Below, in pieces: positions 4,529 to 60,914 of a stretch of DNA of 64,000 nt. Position numbers and translations under genes: made by a program. How positions within the stretch are numbered: the stretch's first letter is position 1; every line of letters starts with the position of its first letter. The stretch is taken from the IMG/VR virus record IMGVR_UViG_3300045988_162656, one strand, 5' to 3'. The notes under the pieces are model-generated. The model was not told the DNA's origin and made no database searches. It saw only the letters and a list, made by a program, of their open reading frames with translations. This DNA is from a virus (taxonomy: Duplodnaviria > Heunggongvirae > Uroviricota > Caudoviricetes).

Positions 4529-4792
4529 TTAACCCGCAGTGCTTTCAACTGATGAGGGGAACAAAATCTTTTCATCAAACCCTGCATTCATATCATGAAC
4601 AGCAACACACCAATCCATCGACGAACGATTATCAAGAGCCTCCATGATTTCATCCATGCAGCGCAGGTCATACAGGTAAATGCTTTTATCGCCAATGGTG
4701 TAAAAACCAATTTTTTTCGGTGATGGGCAGCGATCAAGAACGTCCTGTAATTCGTTCAACCATGCCCGTTCTTTTTTTGTTAAAGTTGCCAT
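4529..4792 (-). CDS. hypothetical protein
   Basis: start MATLTKKE at 4790-4792 preceded by aaaggagag RBS. Confidence 0.45.
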   Translation of the reverse strand: MATLTKKERAWLNELQDVLDRCPSPKKIGFYTIGDKSIYLYDLRCMDEIMEALDNRSSMDWCVAVHDMNAGFDEKILFPSSVESTAG

Positions 4793-4793
4793 A

Positions 4794-5315
4794 TCACTCT
4801 CCTTTGATGCGAATGCCTGTTGCAATGCTGTTTATGATGCTGTCAGTGCATGGAGTAGAAAGCTGGGCATCTCCAGCAATTTTCATGACCTCAACATCCG
4901 CATATCGAATACCGAGGTGTATCAGACCGGCTATACCTGACTTAAGTCGAACATTTTCCATAAACAGATCTTTTTCCCGCTGTTTAGCGGCTTCCAACTC
5001 CATCGACAATTTTTCCAACTGCTCTTTATGCTTCTTGTATTCCTGATACGCGTGCCAAGACTGACCTTTGCGCACACTATCAGTGATATCAGCAACCTGC
5101 TCCGGTGTTAGCGTGGTCAGTGGCTGTGCTGGAAAAATCATCACTTTCCCGGCATCCCAATCAAAACCCGCCTGAATTGACTGAACCTCAACTGATGGTG
5201 TTGAACCGATGCGACCAGGCGAATGAACAACGATCGTTACATCCATATCGCGACGATGGCTGTGGTTGTTGGACAAAATACGATTCACCAACTCAGAAAA
5301 TTTGGAAAATTTCAT
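4794..5315 (-). CDS. hypothetical protein
   Basis: ORF trimmed to MKFSKF start overlapping upstream stop (ATGA); ends GIRIKGE. Confidence 0.45.
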
Positions 5316-5635
5316 GCTGATCCCTCTTTCTCTCCCCGGATAATTCTGTTGCACACATCCACACACTCGTCGCAGATGAAAACGGCGTCCCCAGCAATTA
5401 ACTTTTTGACGGCGTACTGGGATTTGTTGCAGAAGCTGCAACAAAGTGTTCGCCTGACTGATAAGGATGGAGCGCCAGATGTCAGCCGCTCCATATCGTT
5501 CTTGCGACGCAATATCACACGGCTGAACTCAACCAGTTTCTCCGGGGATATCTCCTCCTCCGTAGCAAGCGCCTCTAATCGTTCGAGTATGTGGAAGGCT
5601 TTTTTCTGGGTAATTGCAGAATGCGATGTGGTCAT
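5312..5635 (-). CDS. small protein with C-terminal ClpX-type C4 zinc-binding domain (no AAA+ module)
   Basis: C-terminus [40 protein letters not shown] closely parallels the ClpX N-domain ([39 protein letters not shown]); start MTTSHS coupled to upstream gene. Confidence 0.6.
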
Positions 5636-7929: not shown

Positions 7930-7990
7930 ATGTTTTTCTCTTATCGTTTAGTTATTACATTCTTACACAAATTAAGTAAGTATTTACCTA

Positions 7991-12835: not shown

Positions 12836-12959
12836 AAAGAGTTGCGGCTGGCAATCGCCAGCCGCCTTTCTCGTTCCATCCTGGAACTGTGTCTTACCGA
12901 CACATTGTCATCCTGACGCCGATAAGATACATGATTTATAATGATAGGTAAACACTTAC

Positions 12960-13553
12960 TTACTGTTTGTTATAAACAAAACCAATATCTTTCTTGTGAG
13001 GCATATCTGCTGCTGAAAAAGCTGCGATCTTCGCGAGTCGATCACATATTTCATTTTCACGATGCCCGGCGTGACCTTTAACCCACTTCCAGCGAACATT
13101 ATGTCGACTTGCGGCCTCATCCAGACGCTTCCACAGATCAACATTCTTTACCGGTTTTTTGTCAGAAGTCATCCATCCATTGCGTTTCCACCATTTCATC
13201 CACTGTGTCATGCCGTTTTTCAGATACTGGCTATCAGAGTGCAAAATAACGTTGCATGGATATTTCAAACGCTCCAGCCCGATAAGTGCCCCCATCATCT
13301 CCATGCGGTTATTGGTGGTGCTATGAAAACCATCTGAGAACTCGCGTTCCTCGCCACGATACTGGAGAACGATACCGTAACCGCCCGGGCCACCCGGATT
13401 TTTAAGGCAAGAGCCATCACTAAAGATTTTCACGGTTTTAAGCTGGGGATTGAACTCTACGACAGGCGTTGTGGGATTGGTGCGGGGAGAATTTTTGTTT
13501 TTGTCTTTTTTGCGAGTTTTTGCTTGCGGTCGGGCTGGTGTCTTCGTTGTCAT
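12960..13553 (-). CDS. rnhA: ribonuclease HI with basic N-terminal extension
   Basis: [42 protein letters not shown] motifs; start trimmed to MTTKTPARP with aggag RBS. Confidence 0.8.
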
Positions 13554-15146: not shown

Positions 15147-15328
15147 CTTCTTTCTCGATAGGTAAGCAAATACCTATTTTTGCATTTGATTTTATGTATG
15201 GCAATCAAATAAAACGCGCCAGAAATGCGAACAAGAAGCTCTCTGGCGCGTTTTTTTGGTGCTGGGTATGGGTTATCTTACCCAGCACTATAAAGCTCTC
15301 TATGGGCTTTATTTTCAGTAGGGGAACG

Positions 15329-29277: not shown

Positions 29278-29531
29278 GTGTTTTTCCTTTGTGGTTATTT
29301 TGATACAAATTTTAAGAGCAATGAGAAGGTAAACAACTATGCATAACGGTATGTTAGGAATGAAACGAGCGTCTTAATATACAAAATTTATAAGTAAGTA
29401 TATACCTATTTATTGTGGCGCAACTTTGCTTGTCTGTATGACTAAAAATAAGACAGGATCACTGTAGAACGCTATGAGAGCTATTTTGAGGAGGCGTAGA
29501 TTCTATCTACGCCAATATACGATCTGGAGGG

Positions 29532-30259: not shown

Positions 30260-30497
30260 CACATATCCACAGGATAGATCCTAATAAAGAGATCCATAGA
30301 TAGATCCTTATATAGATCAAATAAGATCCCCGATCGCTGTAAGCCGCGCCACGACTGGTCTGAAGTCATGTTCATGTATGCTGTCAGCGGTAATTGATAG
30401 TCTGTCAGCGGTTCACCGTATGCTGCCAACTGTTTTTGGTATTCTGTCAGCGGCAAATCAAGTATGCTGTCAGCGGTTGAATGACAAAGGTGTCCAC
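30260..30497 (+). promoter_or_regulatory. plasmid-type replication origin region: DnaA-box-like atatccaca (30273-30281), six GATC sites (30287-30345), five 16-bp iterons (30376-30477)
   Basis: motifs read directly; arrangement parallels P1 oriR/incC upstream of repA. Confidence 0.65.
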
Positions 30498-31592
30498 ATG
30501 TCCACAAAAAATAAAAAAGGTAAAAATAACAAAGAAGTAGAAGATAACATCGACAACTTTGAAGAAGGTTCCCTTGAATTGTACACAGGGGAACTTGTCC
30601 CTAATAGCAACAATACAGTCCAACCAATTGCGTTGATGCGACTGGGGTTGTTCGTCCCCACGCTTAAGGGAACAAAATACAGTAAACGTAACAAGCCAAA
30701 TGAGATCGATGCTTCAAAGGAGCTTGTCCAGCTCGAAGTAGCCCGTTCTGAAGGCTATTCCGATATCAAGATAACCGGTCCTCGTCTCGACATGGATCAT
30801 GATTTCAAAACGTGGGTGGGCGTTGTGCGTTCGCTGGCAGAATACGGCGAACCTAACGGTCGTGTCGAGTTAAGCATCACGAAATTTGCTAAGTTTTGTG
30901 GCTATCCATCGTCACAGATCCGCAAAACACTCCGCGACCGGCTTACAAACAGTCTTTTGAAGATCATGCGTACAACTCTGTCTTTCCAGAGAACGTATGA
31001 AGAAAAGAACGTCGACGGCTCTAACAAGATCTCGCTTCTGATGGTGCACCTCATCAATAGCGTGGACTACAACGAGCAGAAAGATACGGTGGTGTTCTAT
31101 GCAGAACCGAAGCTGGCCGAACTATATCGCTTTGACCATAAGGTTCTTTTGCAGTTAAAGGTTATCAATAAGCTACCACGCAAAGAAACAGCACAGGCTC
31201 TGTACACCTTCATCGAAAGTCTTCCAACCAAGCCTGCGCCGGTATCGCTTGCTCGATTGCGTGCGCGACTCAATTTGAGTAGCAGGAATGTCAGCTCGCA
31301 GAATCAGACTATACGTAACGGCTTAAAAGCTCTCCAAGATTTGGGCTATCTCGAATACAGCGAGATTAAGCGTGGGCGGTCGATCTATATCCAGATTCAC
31401 AGCCGCAATCCAAAACTCAAAGTCGCACCGCCAAAACCTGAAGACATCGAACCCAAAAAACCAGATGAGAAAGCTGGGGAAATTGATGCCAAACAGAACA
31501 TTATCAACAAGATAACCGAACTTTCGCAGAATTTGACGCCTGAAAATATCAAGATGATTGAGATCCTTTCCAATAGTCTCAAACTGCTTTGA
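30498..31592 (+). CDS. repA: iteron-binding replication initiator RepA-like
   Basis: 365-aa ORF (in-frame start after iterons, RBS aaagg) flanked on both sides by iteron arrays; lone plus-strand gene. Confidence 0.7.
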   Translation: MSTKNKKGKNNKEVEDNIDNFEEGSLELYTGELVPNSNNTVQPIALMRLGLFVPTLKGTKYSKRNKPNEIDASKELVQLEVARSEGYSDIKITGPRLDMDHDFKTWVGVVRSLAEYGEPNGRVELSITKFAKFCGYPSSQIRKTLRDRLTNSLLKIMRTTLSFQRTYEEKNVDGSNKISLLMVHLINSVDYNEQKDTVVFYAEPKLAELYRFDHKVLLQLKVINKLPRKETAQALYTFIESLPTKPAPVSLARLRARLNLSSRNVSSQNQTIRNGLKALQDLGYLEYSEIKRGRSIYIQIHSRNPKLKVAPPKPEDIEPKKPDEKAGEIDAKQNIINKITELSQNLTPENIKMIEILSNSLKLL

Positions 31593-32124
31593 TATGCTGT
31601 CAGCGGTGAAATGTATGCTATCAGCGGCTATTTTTCTGAAAAGTATGCTGTGAACGGTTAAAGATATGCTACCAGCGGTATAGTGAGATGAACGTATGCT
31701 GTGAGCGGTAAATCATCTATCACCACTCAATGCTCTGTCATACCTCCCCAGTGGTTACTAACCTCGAAGAGTGCATTCCATATAGGTTTGCGCTCACTAA
31801 CATTCTATTGCTATTGCGCTGATTGCTTGTAGTGAAAGGCATTTATTGCCTGCTACTCCCTGATAGAACGTATGCTGTCAGCGGTGTTTTATTGAGGAAT
31901 TTTTGTTTGGATATGCTATCAGCGGTAATTAATGGCATATGTCAGACATTCGTATGCTGCCAGCGGTAATTTTGTTCTGGTTATACCCATACCGGTACAC
32001 ATTATTCATGCAATGTCTTAAGTATGCTGTCAGCGGTAAAAAATCGAGTAAAGTATGCTGTGAGCGGTGAGATAGACTCTCGATATGCTATCAGCGGTAG
32101 TTGATTGTGTATGCTGTCAGCGGT
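31593..32124 (+). repeat. incA-like array of 12 iterons, consensus GTATGCTGTCAGCGGT
   Basis: 12 near-identical 16-bp direct repeats with irregular spacing immediately downstream of repA. Confidence 0.8.
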
Positions 32125-32171
32125 GACGACTATGAAATATGACTGCGGAACGTGCCGCAGTCAGTTTGCAT

Positions 32172-32384
32172 TTAGTGTATTTTCTTTAACAGACCCCAAA
32201 GTGTTCCGGCTTTTGTAGTCAGTTTTCCTGTTTCTGGATCGTACATACGCCATTCACGCCGCTGGTGGACGATATACCCATCTTCACGTTCCAGACGCTC
32301 AAGAATGCCAGGCTGCTTGAAACCCTTAGCACGCCAGTAGCCGCTTGTTTTCTCGATTTCCAGACCTGCCAGTGTTAATGCCAT
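32172..32384 (-). CDS. hypothetical protein
   Basis: 70 aa; ATGA-coupled to upstream gene. Confidence 0.35.
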   Translation of the reverse strand: MALTLAGLEIEKTSGYWRAKGFKQPGILERLEREDGYIVHQRREWRMYDPETGKLTTKAGTLWGLLKKIH

Positions 32385-32719
32385 TACCCAACCTCCTTGC
32401 AGTCATCGAAAAGGTAGCTTTGCTGAGAAGCGTGAACGCCATAGAAGCCCTTGTATTTGTTGTATACGAAGTGGTCTTCTCCGACGCCGGTTAATTTGCC
32501 ATTACGATTTGTGAGATATGGGGATGACAACACTCGATCGTCACGCACAACATAGAACTGGTCGCCGCTGTCTACGACCATCGCTCCATATGGTGCTTTT
32601 ATGACGTCGGTAAGAGCGCCATTCTTAACGTCGGCTACAGACATTTCACACTGATAAACAGTGGTGTCGGCCACAACGATCGAAGAAAGAAACAACAGCG
32701 CGAATGGGATGGTCTTCAT
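32384..32719 (-). CDS. hypothetical secreted protein (signal peptide)
   Basis: N-terminus MKTIPFALLFLSSIVVA; ATGA coupling to upstream small membrane gene. Confidence 0.4.
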   Translation of the reverse strand: MKTIPFALLFLSSIVVADTTVYQCEMSVADVKNGALTDVIKAPYGAMVVDSGDQFYVVRDDRVLSSPYLTNRNGKLTGVGEDHFVYNKYKGFYGVHASQQSYLFDDCKEVG

Positions 32720-32895
32720 GCTGCCACCTCTTTGATTACATCAAATGCTGAATTAAATACGAGCACGATAGCCAAAGCGTTTATGACTACGTCGTGCACC
32801 GGGGAAAAGACTTTACGAATGACACCAGTGAAAATGCAGTCGATGACAAAAGCTATTGAAACGATGAGTAACAAGTATTCAATAAAAATCTTCAT
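32716..32895 (-). CDS. small two-TM membrane protein (58 aa; below the ORF-track size cut-off)
   Basis: translated by hand: MKIFIEYLLLIVSIAFVIDCIFTGVIRKVFSPVHDVVINALAIVLVFNSAFDVIKEVAA; stop overlaps next start. Confidence 0.35.
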   Translation of the reverse strand: MKIFIEYLLLIVSIAFVIDCIFTGVIRKVFSPVHDVVINALAIVLVFNSAFDVIKEVAA

Positions 32896-32934
32896 GATAG
32901 GTAGATACTAACTTATATAAACTTTACTGTAAAC

Positions 32935-33210
32935 TCACTCAAAAGTGCTGATGCTTAAAATACGCTCAAGATGTTCAGCATCTTCATTACTGATTTGTTG
33001 AGTCTCTTCTACGTACCAACAGTTGCCGTTATGCCAACAAACACCATCATCATCAACCATCACTGAATCAGCGTCATGACCTGTATATTCAACAAGAGTA
33101 CGCTGGATCAGCGCGTCAGTTTCTTCATCGTTAAGGCCATCGACTTTGACCATAAAAAGCGGAAACACGTCATAGACAGTGCTGGTAACGATTCGAACTA
33201 AAACTCTCAT
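32935..33210 (-). CDS. hypothetical protein
   Basis: 91-aa ORF with conserved initiation region. Confidence 0.35.
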   Translation of the reverse strand: MRVLVRIVTSTVYDVFPLFMVKVDGLNDEETDALIQRTLVEYTGHDADSVMVDDDGVCWHNGNCWYVEETQQISNEDAEHLERILSISTFE

Positions 33211-33265
33211 GTGTTTTTCCTTTTGTGGTTAGTGTTTACTTATTTTGTTAGTTATGAATAGGCGA

Positions 33266-33691
33266 TCAATCTTCTTGGTTAGGGAAAAACTGTTCAATAA
33301 CTCTGTCAACGGCTGTGTCTATATGGAGTAGATGCCACACAACCATATCTTTGCTTCCCATGCCTTGTGTGAATATCACGTCATACTTACGCCATGCGCA
33401 GTGGAACCAATATGCTGAGTCATCAATTGGTAAATCCTCTCCCGCCTCTTTGAAGTATTTCAGCAGCATTGCCTGCTCTGCCGTTGGCGTTGGACCTATT
33501 TCCTGAGCGTACATACGGATGAATCGCTGCCAGTCTGTCTCGTCGGGGGTTGGATCTGGTGGGGTCATTTCTGCGATAGCGTTTCGTAGCTGATGCGCCC
33601 AATCAGGTTCAGGAAAGCCTTTTGCTACTTCATCATCAATAACATCCAGAGCCACGTTTGCGGCATCGTAGAGTTTCTTAATTGCTGCCAT
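33266..33691 (-). CDS. hypothetical protein
   Basis: 141-aa ORF. Confidence 0.4.
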   Translation of the reverse strand: MAAIKKLYDAANVALDVIDDEVAKGFPEPDWAHQLRNAIAEMTPPDPTPDETDWQRFIRMYAQEIGPTPTAEQAMLLKYFKEAGEDLPIDDSAYWFHCAWRKYDVIFTQGMGSKDMVVWHLLHIDTAVDRVIEQFFPNQED

Positions 33692-33752: not shown

Positions 33753-34142
33753 TCACTCCGATACAAGACGTTTATATGCTTCGATGTCTCGACGTGCTTC
33801 ACCGAGTTTTCTTCTTAGGTCCATATTTTCTGATTCAAGTTTTTCAATGTTTTTTTGGTATCGGCCACGATGTTCTTCCCAGGCATCCTGATATGCCTTC
33901 ATATATGTCGTATTAGCCTTTCTTTTTGCCTGACGAACCGCGTGGTGATTTTCTACAAACCAGTCAGGGTCGTTAAATGCTGCTCTTGCGCATTTATACC
34001 AATAATCGGTTGACTCTCTGTTTAACCAATGAATGGTGATAAATGGTAATCGAATAGACAGAATTTTTCGTTTGGAATCTCGCTCACCAAACATATGCCC
34101 TTTTTTTATCTTTAAACCGAACCCAGGTTGAATTAAAAGCAT
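33753..34142 (-). CDS. hypothetical protein
   Basis: 129-aa ORF, C-terminal coiled coil. Confidence 0.35.
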   Translation of the reverse strand: MLLIQPGFGLKIKKGHMFGERDSKRKILSIRLPFITIHWLNRESTDYWYKCARAAFNDPDWFVENHHAVRQAKRKANTTYMKAYQDAWEEHRGRYQKNIEKLESENMDLRRKLGEARRDIEAYKRLVSE

Positions 34143-34162
34143 TGTCAGTACCTCAGATGCAT

Positions 34163-34903
34163 TTATGGCAGTAATTCTTTACCGCTTTCCATTTTGGTGA
34201 TAGAGACAGTAGGATCATCGTTAATGCATGATTCTGTGCCTAATGCTGCTAACCCTTTACGCATAACCGTGCCCGCAACATACGCCTCAATCTCCGCCTT
34301 TCCAGATGAGACAATTTCATCCATTTGTTCCTGCATTAATTCGGTAGCAAAGCACAGATTTTCAGGAAGGTTAGCTACAGCAGATGCTAGTTTTCTATAT
34401 AGTTCTTCAAGGTCACGTTTTCCAGCTCTTCCTTTTTTCACAAGTTCACCTAGCTCTGAAACTTGCTGATTAAGTCGATCAATCTCACTATTCGTAGCGG
34501 CCTTTATTTGATCGTTGAATTTTTGCCGAATACTTTTTTGCTCGGCAATATCATGAACTCTAATTGAGTCTCCAATGGTTTTATATGAAATAGTGCATGG
34601 CACACCTTCGCCCACTCCAAAACTGCTAACCATAGCAGCCCATTGTGCCTGGCTAAGTCTAATTTCAACTAAAGGCCGTCTATTGCAACTTCTTTGTGGG
34701 CGGGTTCGTTCATTGTCTAAGGACAGTTCCGCCTCGTAAACGCCTATTTCAATATAGTCTCTATGTTCCAGTTCTGAATCAAATAGGCGAATGCCAGTTG
34801 TGCTAACACGGCTTGTTTTCACAAGACCGAACGCTGGATGTGTTTGAATTTTTTCCCCATGTTTATTAAGGGTCGTTTTTGGTTCTTCAATTTTTCTTTT
34901 CAT
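34163..34903 (-). CDS. hypothetical protein
   Basis: 246-aa ORF. Confidence 0.4.
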   Translation of the reverse strand: MKRKIEEPKTTLNKHGEKIQTHPAFGLVKTSRVSTTGIRLFDSELEHRDYIEIGVYEAELSLDNERTRPQRSCNRRPLVEIRLSQAQWAAMVSSFGVGEGVPCTISYKTIGDSIRVHDIAEQKSIRQKFNDQIKAATNSEIDRLNQQVSELGELVKKGRAGKRDLEELYRKLASAVANLPENLCFATELMQEQMDEIVSSGKAEIEAYVAGTVMRKGLAALGTESCINDDPTVSITKMESGKELLP

Positions 34904-34950
34904 CTTATTAACCTCTATGCTTCATGCGTAAAGCTAAATGACAATTTTTT

Positions 34951-35775
34951 TTAATATCCGGCGTATTCGTATTCTTCATTTAGACCGTATTCTTGTGGAG
35001 TGATACCAGGACAACATAACTCAAAGGCGAACTTGCGCCATTTGATTTTTTCTTCTGACGATTGTTTGTTATTCGCCGGTGCAATGTAGTCATATTCCCA
35101 TTTGCCGTTGCGAAGTAAAATGAATCCGCAGTTATTGCCGAAGTCTTCGTCTGCATAACGTATTACAAACTCAAGGTGCGGGAACTTTCTAGCCATCGCT
35201 TGATAAATTGGTTTTGGCATAGACCAGGCTGTTTCAAAGCGAATCACCAACTCACCACCAGTTGCGGCATGTCTTGCAAGACGTTTTTTATAGATTCGTT
35301 TTGCATATGCTCGAACGTGTGTATGGCGGAAATTATGGCCGTACTTAATACGTGTAGGGATACGTTTTACGGGCATTTCGATGTTGTAGGCATTCCATTT
35401 TGTTCCCCAATTAGCTCGCGACCAGTCAAACCATGAGTAATAGCCATAGCGACGATAATTCTCAAGCCGCATAAGAGCCTGCTCTTTGATTTTGCGAATT
35501 TCCTTGCGTGTCATTCCTGATTCACGCATAGCTAATTCGACCTGTTCTGGAGTCTTTAATTCACCGAACATGTGGTCGTAAACTGTTTCGCCCGCCATTG
35601 CAGAGGCCATGCGCCTGATATGATTGTTTTCTTCCATTTCTATACTTTTCGGACGTCTGCAAATGGTATTAAAGTCAATTAGACCTTTTTTGTTAGTTAT
35701 GGCACGTATGAAATCTAAGCGTTGTTTATTTGTACCACCTATGACTCGGATTTCGTTTGTAATGTGGTTGGGCAT
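34951..35775 (-). CDS. hypothetical protein
   Basis: 274-aa ORF; palindromic motif 16 nt upstream. Confidence 0.4.
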   Translation of the reverse strand: MPNHITNEIRVIGGTNKQRLDFIRAITNKKGLIDFNTICRRPKSIEMEENNHIRRMASAMAGETVYDHMFGELKTPEQVELAMRESGMTRKEIRKIKEQALMRLENYRRYGYYSWFDWSRANWGTKWNAYNIEMPVKRIPTRIKYGHNFRHTHVRAYAKRIYKKRLARHAATGGELVIRFETAWSMPKPIYQAMARKFPHLEFVIRYADEDFGNNCGFILLRNGKWEYDYIAPANNKQSSEEKIKWRKFAFELCCPGITPQEYGLNEEYEYAGY

Positions 35776-35870: not shown

Positions 35871-36701
35871 TTATTTCACTGTAATGAAAGGAGTGTTAGC
35901 CCCTTGAGTCATGTACTGCGGTAACTGGCCATTCCATTTATTGATGGCTTCCAGTTCCATAACGTTCGGGTTTTGACGCAGAGCTTCACCGCGCAGACGA
36001 ATGGCGTCTGCTTCTGCTTGCGCACGAGCACGGATAGCATCAGCTTCACCATTAGCCTGTTCACGTAGCATATTCGCCTCAGCTTTACGTTGTTCAACTT
36101 CCTGCTGACGTTGCAGAGTACGCTGGTTAGCCGTTACTTTGGCGTTGATAGATTCAATGACGGTTTTTGGGTAATCAGGCTTTCCAACCCATGACAGGCT
36201 CAGTACCTCAATACCAACCGGAGACATCTCTTTCTGAATATCTTTCAGTGCGTTGTCCAGCAATTGCGCCTTACCACCGTCGATAAATGAGTCAGTGGTC
36301 ATACGGCTGGCCAAACGGTTTAGAGAGTCGGCAATTTTCTGACGCAGATCTGATTCGGTGATATCGTCTACGCCTTTGCGATAGGTCTGGAACACCGTCG
36401 TTACCTTGTCACGATTAACCAGATACGCAACGCCAATTTTGTGACCAATAGCAGTACCGTCACTCATCTGGAATGTGAACGGTTCGTCGTAGGTCTTCAT
36501 TTGTTTGAAGGTCGGGAATACGTAAAGTTCGGTGTTAAGACCTGTCCATTGGCGACCAACGCCAACCACTTCACCGATCCCTTTGTCTTCACCTAATTTG
36601 TTTACTTTGATGCCAACGTATCCAGGCTCCACGCGATCACAGCCAGTAAGACCCATTGTGCAAATAGCCGCCAGAGCAACTGCAAGTAAACCTTTCTTCA
36701 T
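35871..36701 (-). CDS. SPFH/band-7 domain lipoprotein
   Basis: lipobox LTGC after signal peptide; prohibitin-like core followed by Ala/Glu-rich coiled coil. Confidence 0.65.
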   Translation of the reverse strand: MKKGLLAVALAAICTMGLTGCDRVEPGYVGIKVNKLGEDKGIGEVVGVGRQWTGLNTELYVFPTFKQMKTYDEPFTFQMSDGTAIGHKIGVAYLVNRDKVTTVFQTYRKGVDDITESDLRQKIADSLNRLASRMTTDSFIDGGKAQLLDNALKDIQKEMSPVGIEVLSLSWVGKPDYPKTVIESINAKVTANQRTLQRQQEVEQRKAEANMLREQANGEADAIRARAQAEADAIRLRGEALRQNPNVMELEAINKWNGQLPQYMTQGANTPFITVK

Positions 36702-36704
36702 TAC

Positions 36705-36905
36705 TTATTTCCCCTTTGCTTTGATTAATGAGTTGATAAACTTACGACCAGCAATAAGACCGATTACAGGAGCACCAAAACCAACGATAACTCCAAACAT
36801 GACGGCTAAATCACTCTTGGTAGAAATCAGCGACGGAACCAGTAAACTGTAGATGAGAGCCACTGAAACGCCTGTGGCTACTGCCAATAGATAGATTTTG
36901 ATCAT
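36705..36905 (-). CDS. small membrane protein upstream of and coupled to the SPFH gene (NfeD-like partner candidate)
   Basis: 66 aa, two hydrophobic helices; 3-nt gap to SPFH gene. Confidence 0.4.
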   Translation of the reverse strand: MIKIYLLAVATGVSVALIYSLLVPSLISTKSDLAVMFGVIVGFGAPVIGLIAGRKFINSLIKAKGK

Positions 36906-36967
36906 GTGTTTTCCTATGTGGTTGTTATGCGAAAATAATAAGTAAGTACTTATATATTTTCAAGAGA

Positions 36968-36995
36968 TAAAAAAGGCGTCCTGTGGACGCCTTGT
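36968..36995 (-). terminator. rho-independent terminator after the RecA-like gene
   Basis: minus-strand hairpin aaggcgtcc-aca-ggacgcctt followed by tttttt. Confidence 0.7.
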
Positions 36996-40373: not shown

Positions 40374-40490
40374 GTGTTTCTCCTTGTTGTGATTTGGCCG
40401 ATGGCGCTATGCGCGTTGGGCTTTCGTTCATTCGTGGCTCTTTCGAGCTGTTAAATGATAGATCAGTACTTACTTATTATCTATCAAAAA

Positions 40491-53135: not shown

Positions 53136-53895
53136 AATTCAGCACTGCCAGTATTTATTACTCAACAGTGCCAATCGCGGCGGTGTTAGTTTCTGCCAGG
53201 AAACGCACCGCTACTTGCACTTTTTCGTTAGTGTCAGACGCTTTCGACTTCTCTCAATAGAAGGCAAAATCTTTAAGTAGATGATGTTTCTGAGGACAGC
53301 ACCTACTTTGTAATTTATACAATGTGATGTATGGAATCATTTGTTGTGGAAAAGTGGTTAAACCTACACAACAATCCTGTCTTCACAACGTTGAGGCCAC
53401 TACTCCGATTGAATGTTTGCCCAACATGTTACATATCAACGCTCGCCGGTATCTCTGTGAATAGAACCTTAGAATTGATAAAAATGTAATGGCCTCAACG
53501 TTGTGTGCTGGCTAACCATACCAGCCGGGCTACGTCGCCGCTTTTTAACCCAGTATAAACGACATAATTGAACAAAATGACGTAACAGAATGGGCGGTCA
53601 GTGGCTAAGAATCCGGGAGTCATATGGAGTTGAAAATATACCGACCGCCCATTCTGTTACTTCATCGGAGGGAACATGAGTGTTCCCTCCTGCGTTCTGC
53701 AATCACACTCGCTCAGTGTGTCCCATTTCGGTAACGAGGCTGGAAACTGACCTCGCTGGTGTTTGGCTTATTAGGCTACTGCCAGATAGACTTCTTCGTT
53801 TGCACTTGTATTTAAGTTCAAACAGTCGCATCTCAACGAAAACAAAGTCATCTTATACACAAAGGATAAGTAAGTAAATACTTATCGATATGTTT

Positions 53896-60649: not shown

Positions 60650-60914
60650 CTGGTAGGTAGTTACTTACTTATCACAATGGACGGATGATAGCGACTGGTG
60701 TCAGTTTTTGGAAGTGAAAACGGAAGGGAGTTGTTCTGGTGGTGTCTTTTAAAAGACCTGCTTCCGTATATATTTAATAAGTTACTTATTATTTATATAC
60801 AGAAACAGGCTCCTAATGGATACCAAGAACAACATAATTTGACTCCAACTCCAGATGCTATGTCATTGACAGATTTATCAAGGGAGATCATGTTAGAATT
60901 AGTGTTTTAGCCTC

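Follow-up and report, generated by a model that had tools for sequence, protein, structure and literature searches.

A conserved three-gene operon of SSU5-like phage-plasmids with two putative envelope proteins and a relative of phage P1 Cra

Introduction

The DNA analysed here is a stretch of 64,000 nucleotides (nt) from a virus (IMG/VR record IMGVR_UViG_3300045988_162656), called the window in what follows. At positions 32172-32895 it carries three small overlapping genes, which we name g59, g111 and g70 after the length of their products. We propose, with roughly an even chance of being right, that this trio is a self-contained accessory operon of SSU5-like phage-plasmids which acts on the envelope and stands outside both the replicon and the lysis cassette. 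The three genes are under purifying selection, their order and coupling are kept in a deeply divergent lineage, and in the close relative Cyrano they are transcribed in a condition-specific manner. Their biological role is read from the architecture of the operon and from its expression.

The 1.8-kb stretch around the trio is 100% identical to p09EL50, a plasmid of Escherichia coli O104:H4, and to 'Escherichia phage CMS-2020a'. Outward from the trio, the window is 98-99% identical to Cyrano, the phage-plasmid pLF82, and 76% identical to Salmonella phage SSU5. Because of these identities we regard the window as an SSU5-like phage-plasmid.

Layout and reality of the three genes

A first-pass annotation of the window, made from its sequence, had proposed at this place a coupled unit consisting of a two-helix membrane peptide, a secreted protein with two cysteines and a small cytoplasmic protein. 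Such a translationally coupled unit is supported. All three open reading frames lie precisely there, all on the minus strand, and the predicted membrane, secreted and cytoplasmic locations hold:

32716..32895, minus strand: g59, a putative inner-membrane peptide of 59 amino acids (aa) with two hydrophobic helices (open reading frame and hydropathy, phrog_2535, purifying selection)
32384..32719, minus strand: g111, a 111-aa signal-peptide protein, predicted to form a periplasmic 8-stranded beta-barrel with a Cys24-Cys107 pair
32172..32384, minus strand: g70, a 70-aa basic cytoplasmic protein of the phage P1 Cra family

Two details of the earlier description need adjustment. The membrane peptide does possess two hydrophobic segments, but it is 59 and not 58 residues long. 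Both gene junctions had been described as ATGA overlaps; this applies to g59 and g111, which share 4 nt, but g111 and g70 meet at TAATG with an overlap of a single nucleotide. The signal-peptide protein was described correctly, as g111 shows a lysine at position 2 (K2), a hydrophobic core, a site of the cleavage type (VVA|D) and the two cysteines, Cys24 and Cys107. The same holds for g70, which is hydrophilic and basic and contains no hydrophobic segment.

Strong Shine-Dalgarno sequences precede g111 and g70 (AAAGAGGTGG and AAGGAGGT, respectively), and g59 has none. RefSeq does not list g59 for this E. coli lineage, while the gene has been annotated for Cyrano, SSU5, pMT1 and Enterobacter plasmids. 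Searches of the three proteins against Pfam, NCBIfam and PADLOC returned no usable match; the single PADLOC match, to a Cas5 model (E 0.0087), lies over a hydrophobic stretch and is noise.

Conservation and selection

The trio was compared with six divergent relatives: SSU5, an Enterobacter plasmid, Yersinia pestis pMT1, relatives from Cronobacter and Klebsiella, and divergent E. coli plasmids. Across this set the proportion of synonymous differences (pS) is 0.52-0.88, near saturation, and that of non-synonymous differences (pN) is 0.03-0.37. Where the synonymous rate (dS) could be estimated, its ratio to the non-synonymous rate (dN/dS) is 0.15-0.27 for g59, 0.07-0.15 for g111 and 0.02-0.12 for g70. 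All three genes are under purifying selection. The frame of g59 comprises exactly 59 codons in every one of the six lineages.

The first-pass annotation had named conservation in relatives as a check on its proposal. The trio is conserved across SSU5-like phage-plasmids, so a lack of conservation was not seen. The PLSDB plasmids that have it number 787 and come from at least eight genera (Klebsiella, Escherichia, Enterobacter, Yersinia, Salmonella, Citrobacter, Cronobacter and Shigella), and its carriers include Y. pestis pMT1, Salmonella Typhi pHCM2 and the outbreak strain E. coli O104:H4. Among 5,426 complete E. coli genomes, 210 (~4%) harbor the trio, plasmid-borne every time and never on the chromosome. 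In IMG/VR, g59 and g70 accompany g111 in 80/80 of the loci retrieved with g111. In the pCP102 lineage from Enterobacter the barrel is only ~33% identical, and still the order is unchanged: a two-helix peptide of 49 aa is joined by an ATGA overlap to the barrel, which in turn overlaps Cra. Because order and coupling are kept in this deeply divergent lineage, we consider the trio an old, conserved module.

The S. Typhi plasmid pHCM2 departs from this picture. There, an in-frame deletion (NZ_CP029857.1; 2702-3007 of the retrieved locus) joins g59 residues 1-36 to g111 from about residue 46 and thereby creates a 101-aa product. The fusion point falls in a shared GAMV microhomology (PVNGAMV / YGAMVV), and the pHCM2 cra homologue has a 3-residue deletion. 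As judged from these lesions, the trio is decayed in pHCM2.

Expression in Cyrano

Expression values were taken from S1 Table of Misson et al. 2023 (PMC9928086), which gives log2(FPKM+5) for each Cyrano gene, FPKM standing for fragments per kilobase per million mapped fragments. The table covers overnight growth in lysogeny broth (LB) plus two time points, 1 h and 6 h, for both medium and THP1 macrophages (post infection), and PMC8149705 confirms how the samples are named. The Cyrano operon and that of the window share 98.6% DNA identity, and the promoter spacer differs by one base. The paired values for the three genes are:

CYRAN_60 (g59): LB 2.32/2.32 (floor); medium 6 h 3.41/3.26; macrophage 6 h 8.77/8.44
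CYRAN_61 (g111): LB 2.77/2.32; medium 6 h 2.81/3.31; macrophage 6 h 8.28/8.60
CYRAN_62 (cra): LB 3.76/3.72; medium 6 h 6.09/6.42; macrophage 6 h 8.83/9.02

In LB, CYRAN_60 and CYRAN_61 stand at or near the detection floor and cra slightly above it. In macrophages, CYRAN_60 reaches several hundred FPKM, as back-calculated from a log2(FPKM+5) of ~8.6. Reading all 123 rows, the largest macrophage-versus-medium rise at 6 h belongs to CYRAN_61 and CYRAN_60 (~5.3 log2 units), followed by HicB (~5.0). The polymerase, helicase, primase, terminase, packaging and most structural genes of Cyrano are flat.

The genes located upstream remain low in macrophages (CYRAN_59 at 4.84/5.07, CYRAN_58 at 4.20/3.94). 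Because of this, the operon should have its own transcript start, between CYRAN_59 and CYRAN_60. CYRAN_12/13 and CYRAN_56/57, which lie just downstream of copies of the dispersed motif described in the next section, also rise. A dedicated host signal is no more likely than a partial derepression of the element's regulon, which could come, for example, through the SOS response that LF82 is known to show in macrophages. No Cyrano virions above background were found in macrophages, where the lytic cycle seems repressed (PMC9928086). The trio is absent from the moron list of that study, which was built on LB only.

Control region and dispersed motif

Three features frame the operon, and one of them recurs throughout the window:

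32905..32933, minus strand: sigma70-like promoter, TTTACA-17 nt-TAGTAT, found by consensus scan; the -10 element ends 9 nt before the g59 ATG
32896..32916, minus strand: quasi-palindromic operator-like motif ATAAGTTAGTATCTACCTATC with core AAGTWAGTAnnTACCTA, overlapping the -10 element and abutting the ATG
32140..32163, from a scan of both strands: terminator-like hairpin with a perfect 9-bp stem and a 6-nt loop, beginning 8 nt past the g70 stop
Sites of the core motif in the window: 7974-7990 (+), 12945-12961 (-), 15160-15176 (+), 29392-29408 (+), 32898-32914 (-), 36940-36956 (+), 40459-40475 (-), 53868-53884 (+) and 60654-60670 (-)

The position of the promoter implies a very short or absent g59 leader, from which we infer the approximate transcript start. 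The 39-nt spacer before g59 is nearly invariant over the SSU5, pMT1, Cronobacter and Klebsiella lineages, while the proteins are 47-68% identical and the flanking synonymous sites are saturated. This conservation extends to Klebsiella even though the upstream gene differs there.

At up to two mismatches, nine sites in the window match the core motif, where 0.09 would be expected. The motif comes close to an inverted repeat, TAAGTA-nn-TACTTA, and is often followed by TCAT. In the first 100 kb of Cyrano, 13 of the 14 motif loci are intergenic, 3-131 nt upstream of a gene, and they precede early, structural and lysis genes alike. The motif is kept in the pCP102 lineage as well. From its repeat shape and its placement, it looks like the operator set of a regulator encoded by the element. 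No description of this dispersed motif was found in the literature searched. Boxes of the host regulators CpxR, PhoP and EvgA were considered for the promoter and dropped: their partial likeness was either confined to this lineage or had the wrong half-site arrangement.

The hairpin (fold -15.9 kcal/mol, z -2.9) forms the boundary between the trio and the iteron array of the adjoining replicon. SSU5, pMT1 and Cronobacter, which have a different replicon, show by eye another inverted repeat at this position, and none is evident in Klebsiella and pCP102.

The membrane peptide and the secreted barrel

The two hydrophobic segments of g59 span residues ~3-26 and 33-55 and are parted by IRKVFSPVHD, with a grand average of hydropathy of +1.56. 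Polar residues are found inside the helices (D19, C20, N39 and S49). Conservation covers an acidic-Cys pair (D19-C20) in helix 1, a basic motif in the loop ([RK]K-x-[FL]-x-P) and, in helix 2, polar residues. The C-terminus, DVIKEVAA (GVIKGVAA in SSU5), is short and uncharged, and the start codon provides the sole methionine, so that a dual-start motif is missing. The peptide matches phrog_2535 with E 3.7e-31.

For g111, the AlphaFold2 model (mean predicted local distance difference test score, pLDDT, 85.8) is read as an 8-stranded beta-barrel. The protein has no lipobox. Its family counts just 25 of 1.84 billion cluster representatives, and distant relatives retain the signal peptide, both cysteines, one phenylalanine and an S-P pair. 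g111 is probably a disulfide-bonded periplasmic protein. A sequence-profile search against the PDB gave weak beta-propeller or ribosomal-protein noise alone and no lysozyme inhibitor, and a scan of IMG/VR for distant homologues of the barrel with profile P0092 found nothing.

g70 and the Cra family

g70 matches phrog_804 with E 6.5e-34 and, by tblastn, the Cra proteins of P1 and P7 with 43.5% identity over 62 residues. It shares with P1 Cra the stretch GYWRAKGF and a C-terminal LLKxI (LLKKI in g70), and the two proteins are of similar length, 70 and 73 aa. An alignment of SSU5-like, pCP102 and P1 members contains 20 invariant columns, including GYWR-KGF and LLK-I. On these alignments, g70 is a homologue of phage P1 Cra, and its counterparts in Cyrano and SSU5 are annotated as 'P1 Cra protein' or 'putative Cre-associated protein'.

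With 13 K+R and 9 D+E the protein is basic, and it is also the best conserved member of the trio. Its structural model, of modest confidence (pLDDT 67), is rich in beta structure, ends in a helix and gives no informative fold match; a sequence-profile search against the PDB returned weak noise only. In P1, Cra (P1_gp002) is described as a 'putative cre associated function', nonessential for plaque formation and with no assigned role. Cra homologues occur without g59 and g111 in P1 and on a Pantoea contig, the latter beside umuDC-like genes. Because it is found in these places without the other two genes, Cra is a separable component.

The adjoining replicon

The iterons that the first-pass annotation had seen next to the trio are real: the window holds 17 copies of RTATGCTRYCAGCGGT against 0.17 expected. 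Of these, five are situated where repA starts; the other twelve lie downstream, and the final one ends at 32124. Its suggestion that the placement beside a copy-control locus is meaningful fares less well. The adjoining replicon is of the RepB family in the window and carries an IncFIB-type RepA in Cyrano, SSU5 and pMT1, the repA gene measuring 1056-1065 bp in Cyrano and SSU5. The g70 stop codon (32172) is the exact point where nucleotide homology to Cyrano ends: from 32172 onward the identity is 98.6%, and on the other side Cyrano has another repA and iteron region. By this comparison, 32172 is a replicon-swap breakpoint with its junction at the end of the cra-like gene. With the same trio next to two unrelated replicon types and the homology break at the g70 stop, the placement looks incidental.

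The start of repA deserves a remark of its own. The five iterons at 30376-30477, at 21-bp spacing, overlap the initial ~34 codons of repA, whose reading frame (30378-31592) encodes 404 aa. RefSeq annotates the full frame, and the resulting peptide starts with MLSAV, which is translated iteron. The true start is probably the internal methionine at MSTKNKK.

Proposed operation of the operon

In the arrangement that we favor, a sigma70-type promoter lying under an operator-like motif common to many genes of the element would drive the trio, and the transcript would end at the hairpin in front of the iterons. The ATGA coupling would yield g59 and g111 in a fixed ratio. These two proteins most likely act jointly at the periplasmic face of the inner membrane, possibly as a physical complex, and g70 would be a third product, an independent cytoplasmic protein of the Cra family. 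The operon would be off during ordinary growth of carriers and strongly on when the control of the element relaxes or the host is stressed, as seen in macrophages. The most likely role would be a non-lethal envelope function, either the exclusion of superinfecting phage or the protection of the envelope at the onset of derepression.

Several points weigh against this proposal. The promoter matches the consensus at 9/12 positions. The PHROGs to which the proteins belong (phrog_2535 for g59, phrog_2077 for g111 and phrog_804 for g70) are all families of unknown function. Searches by sequence for families of superinfection exclusion or lysozyme inhibition (Pfam, PHROGs, NCBIfam, PADLOC and PDB profiles) gave no match. 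The fold matches of g111 are generic, and lysozyme inhibitors rank below Cap15, designed barrels and outer-membrane proteins. The RNA-seq data come from the relative Cyrano and not from the element of the window, and their strandedness is unconfirmed. At 6 h, 46/122 pLF82 genes rise, and the macrophage signal could stem from partial prophage derepression or, in bulk RNA-seq, from a dying subpopulation. Silence in LB-grown carriers argues against a classical exclusion system that protects lysogens. Lastly, because a deletion fuses g59 to g111 in pHCM2, the trio is dispensable for the maintenance of that plasmid.

Alternative explanations

The macrophage data could also be read as the signature of a stress-induced moron which benefits the host. 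A periplasmic barrel anchored by the peptide would guard the envelope in phagocytes and, like MliC/PliC-type barrels, inhibit lysozyme or bind an antimicrobial ligand. CYRAN_60 and CYRAN_61 do show the top rise of the element where no Cyrano virions are detected, and the hosts include intracellular pathogens (Y. pestis with pMT1, S. Typhi with pHCM2 and LF82, an E. coli strain of the adherent-invasive (AIEC) type). However, g111 has no Pfam MliC match at E<=1, unrelated barrels outrank lysozyme inhibitors among its generic fold matches, and the rise of other Cyrano genes downstream of the motif fits a general partial derepression. Moreover, the trio is disrupted in pHCM2, and the operon is equally common in non-intracellular hosts and environmental isolates. 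We therefore regard this explanation as unlikely. More specifically, the peptide-barrel pair would be a new phagosome-induced, phage-plasmid-borne device of envelope protection, helping carriers such as AIEC LF82, Y. pestis pMT1, Salmonella and Klebsiella to withstand lysozyme or envelope attack. This claim is a long shot; if it were true, the dispersed palindromic motif would tie prophage control to host stress.

The first-pass annotation had likened the layout to a toxin/immunity or a holin-like arrangement, and neither likeness was borne out. A membrane toxin with a partner that provides immunity or acts as antitoxin, forming a module of plasmid addiction or abortive infection next to the replicon, would suit the small and very hydrophobic g59 with its polar residues within helices, its missing ribosome-binding site (as in some tightly controlled toxins) and the adjoining replicon. 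But no toxin, antitoxin or defence model of Pfam, NCBIfam or PADLOC matched, and an Rfam scan of 31400-33400 at E<=1 gave one chance microRNA match and no antisense RNA family, though novel antisense RNAs would escape such a scan. Addiction needs continuous expression, and g59 and g111 sit at or near the floor in LB, with cra slightly above it, where Cyrano KacT, RelE and HicAB are 9- to 60-fold above background (PMC9928086). The conserved coupling of g59, through ATGA, with a secreted protein does not resemble known membrane-toxin systems, and the adjoining replicon has been exchanged without the trio; a toxin module is thus improbable. An auxiliary control of lysis, with g59 as a class II holin or pinholin-like protein and its partners as antiholins in the manner of T4 RI and RIII acting on holin T, would account for the layout of one two-helix membrane protein with one periplasmic and one cytoplasmic small protein. 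It is highly improbable in view of the complete lysis cassette elsewhere: Cyrano has an annotated holin-endolysin-Rz-Rz1 cassette beside the tail-fibre gene, ~32 kb from the trio, and p09EL50 has, at the corresponding position just outside the window, genes of matching sizes (324/693/252 bp). In addition, the tail of g59 lacks charge, a dual start is missing, no muralytic gene follows, no holin PHROG or Pfam family matches, and in macrophages the Cyrano operon runs ~5-fold above the holin gene (8.6 versus 6.1, log2(FPKM+5)) with virions undetected. Finally, the trio might serve plasmid biology as a regulatory device, g70 binding DNA at or near the iterons while the membrane and periplasmic proteins relay an envelope signal. 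Cra homologues lie beside plasmid-maintenance sites in both families, g70 is basic and strongly conserved, and cra keeps some basal expression while g59 and g111 are off. Nevertheless, no DNA-binding domain or fold was detected in g70, Cra exists without the other two genes in P1 and the Pantoea contig, P1 cra is nonessential, and the same trio is found beside two unrelated replicons, all of which makes such a device quite improbable.

Neighbourhood of the trio

In annotated relatives the gene order, in the direction of transcription, runs from co-directional replication and recombination genes to a small membrane protein with an SPFH/stomatin protein, one to three hypothetical genes, a 91-aa acidic protein, the trio and a convergent repA with iterons. 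The following neighbours were noted in the window:

32935-33210, minus strand: very acidic 91-aa protein (19 D+E, a CWHNGNC motif, phrog_2209), directly upstream of the trio
33753-35775, minus strand: genes of 129, 246 and 274 aa between the DUF7238 and SPFH genes
35871-36993: second small membrane module a few kb upstream of the trio, consisting of a ~66-aa membrane protein and an SPFH/stomatin protein, homologues of CYRAN_56/57

The gene of the 91-aa acidic protein is present in 70/80 IMG/VR trio loci and missing in the Klebsiella lineage. It is under purifying selection, and its Cyrano counterpart is not induced together with the trio. The three genes at 33753-35775 are not at that position in Cyrano and SSU5, and SSU5 and pMT1 hold a DUF2591/NinX-like gene in their place. 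This region is a variable accessory slot shortly upstream of the conserved trio. The second membrane module has a promoter-like site of its own (36963..36935), a copy of the AAGTWAGTAnnTACCTA motif and a bidirectional hairpin (36973-36993). In macrophages, CYRAN_56 is up by ~4.4 log2 units and CYRAN_57 by ~2.5.

Significance

SSU5-like phage-plasmids are a common sight in Enterobacterales, and the trio, part of the conserved backbone of these elements, is annotated just as hypothetical genes, the first often uncalled. It can now be defined as a target: a discrete, regulated transcription unit with a membrane/periplasm pair, and the most macrophage-responsive unit of one such element. Databases already contain the reading frames and the Cra homology; new here are the delimitation of the unit with its control region and conservation, the model of the barrel and the link to existing expression data. 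For the P1 Cra family, long without explanation, the trio supplies a first operon context, and it reveals no new mechanism.

Comparison with known systems

P1 offers the closest parallel for g70. There too, cra resides on a phage-plasmid beside a plasmid-maintenance site, in the order lox-cra-cre, compared with cra-terminator-iterons in the window. In P1, however, cra stands alone, whereas here it is the final gene of an operon with two putative envelope proteins. Furthermore, cre and lox neighbour cra in P1, while in the window no recombinase is adjacent and the sole annotated integrase of Cyrano is ~17 kb away. The association with cre is not a property of the Cra family itself. As to the dispersed motif, the operators of P1 C1 and the stoperators of mycobacteriophages are comparable genome-wide sets of sites.

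The secreted barrel finds counterparts of two kinds. By structure, the lysozyme inhibitors MliC, PliC and ACP are secreted 8-stranded beta-barrels, as predicted here for g111, but g111 differs from MliC/PliC in having no Pfam MliC match even at E<=1. Foldseek against a library of viral structures finds uncharacterised secreted or lipoprotein barrels (template modelling score, TM, 0.6-0.74; E 1e-6 to 1e-4) in Pectobacterium phage Possum, the Erwinia phages Kwan and Huxley, Enterobacteria phage SEGD1 and Xanthomonas phage DIBBI; a function is known for none of them, and several are lipoproteins, unlike g111. By sequence, gp49 of Pantoea phage PdC23 is a true relative (phrog_2077, E 2.3e-13), and PdC23 is itself unrelated to the element of the window. 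Its barrel gene overlaps gp48, which encodes a 46-aa hydrophobic peptide; the peptide gene is downstream of the barrel there and upstream here.

In PdC23, gp50, gp49 and gp48 overlap and form the beginning of the strand that diverges from the regulator gp51 and from the genes of replication (4717-5443 of the retrieved locus). The first of them, gp50, encodes a 76-aa soluble protein. By eye, its AKLLKKVH resembles GLLKKIH of g70; a Cra homologue was rejected here, with an hhalign probability of 1.2% and no phrog_804 match.

For the membrane and periplasmic pair as a whole, phage T4 supplies the nearest likeness. T4 Imm is a small inner-membrane protein and Sp a small periplasmic protein which blocks the tail lysozyme, and together they form a superinfection-exclusion pair. 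The imm and sp genes are not known to be adjacent or coupled, and Sp is helical and not a barrel. No sequence relationship between either protein and the trio was found. By architecture, Imm and Sp may nevertheless be likened to g59 and g111: a small multi-helix inner-membrane protein is paired with a signal-peptide periplasmic protein of ~100 aa, and, like the T4 pair, g59 and g111 would be produced apart from the late programme of lysis and would act on the envelope in a way that leaves the cell alive.

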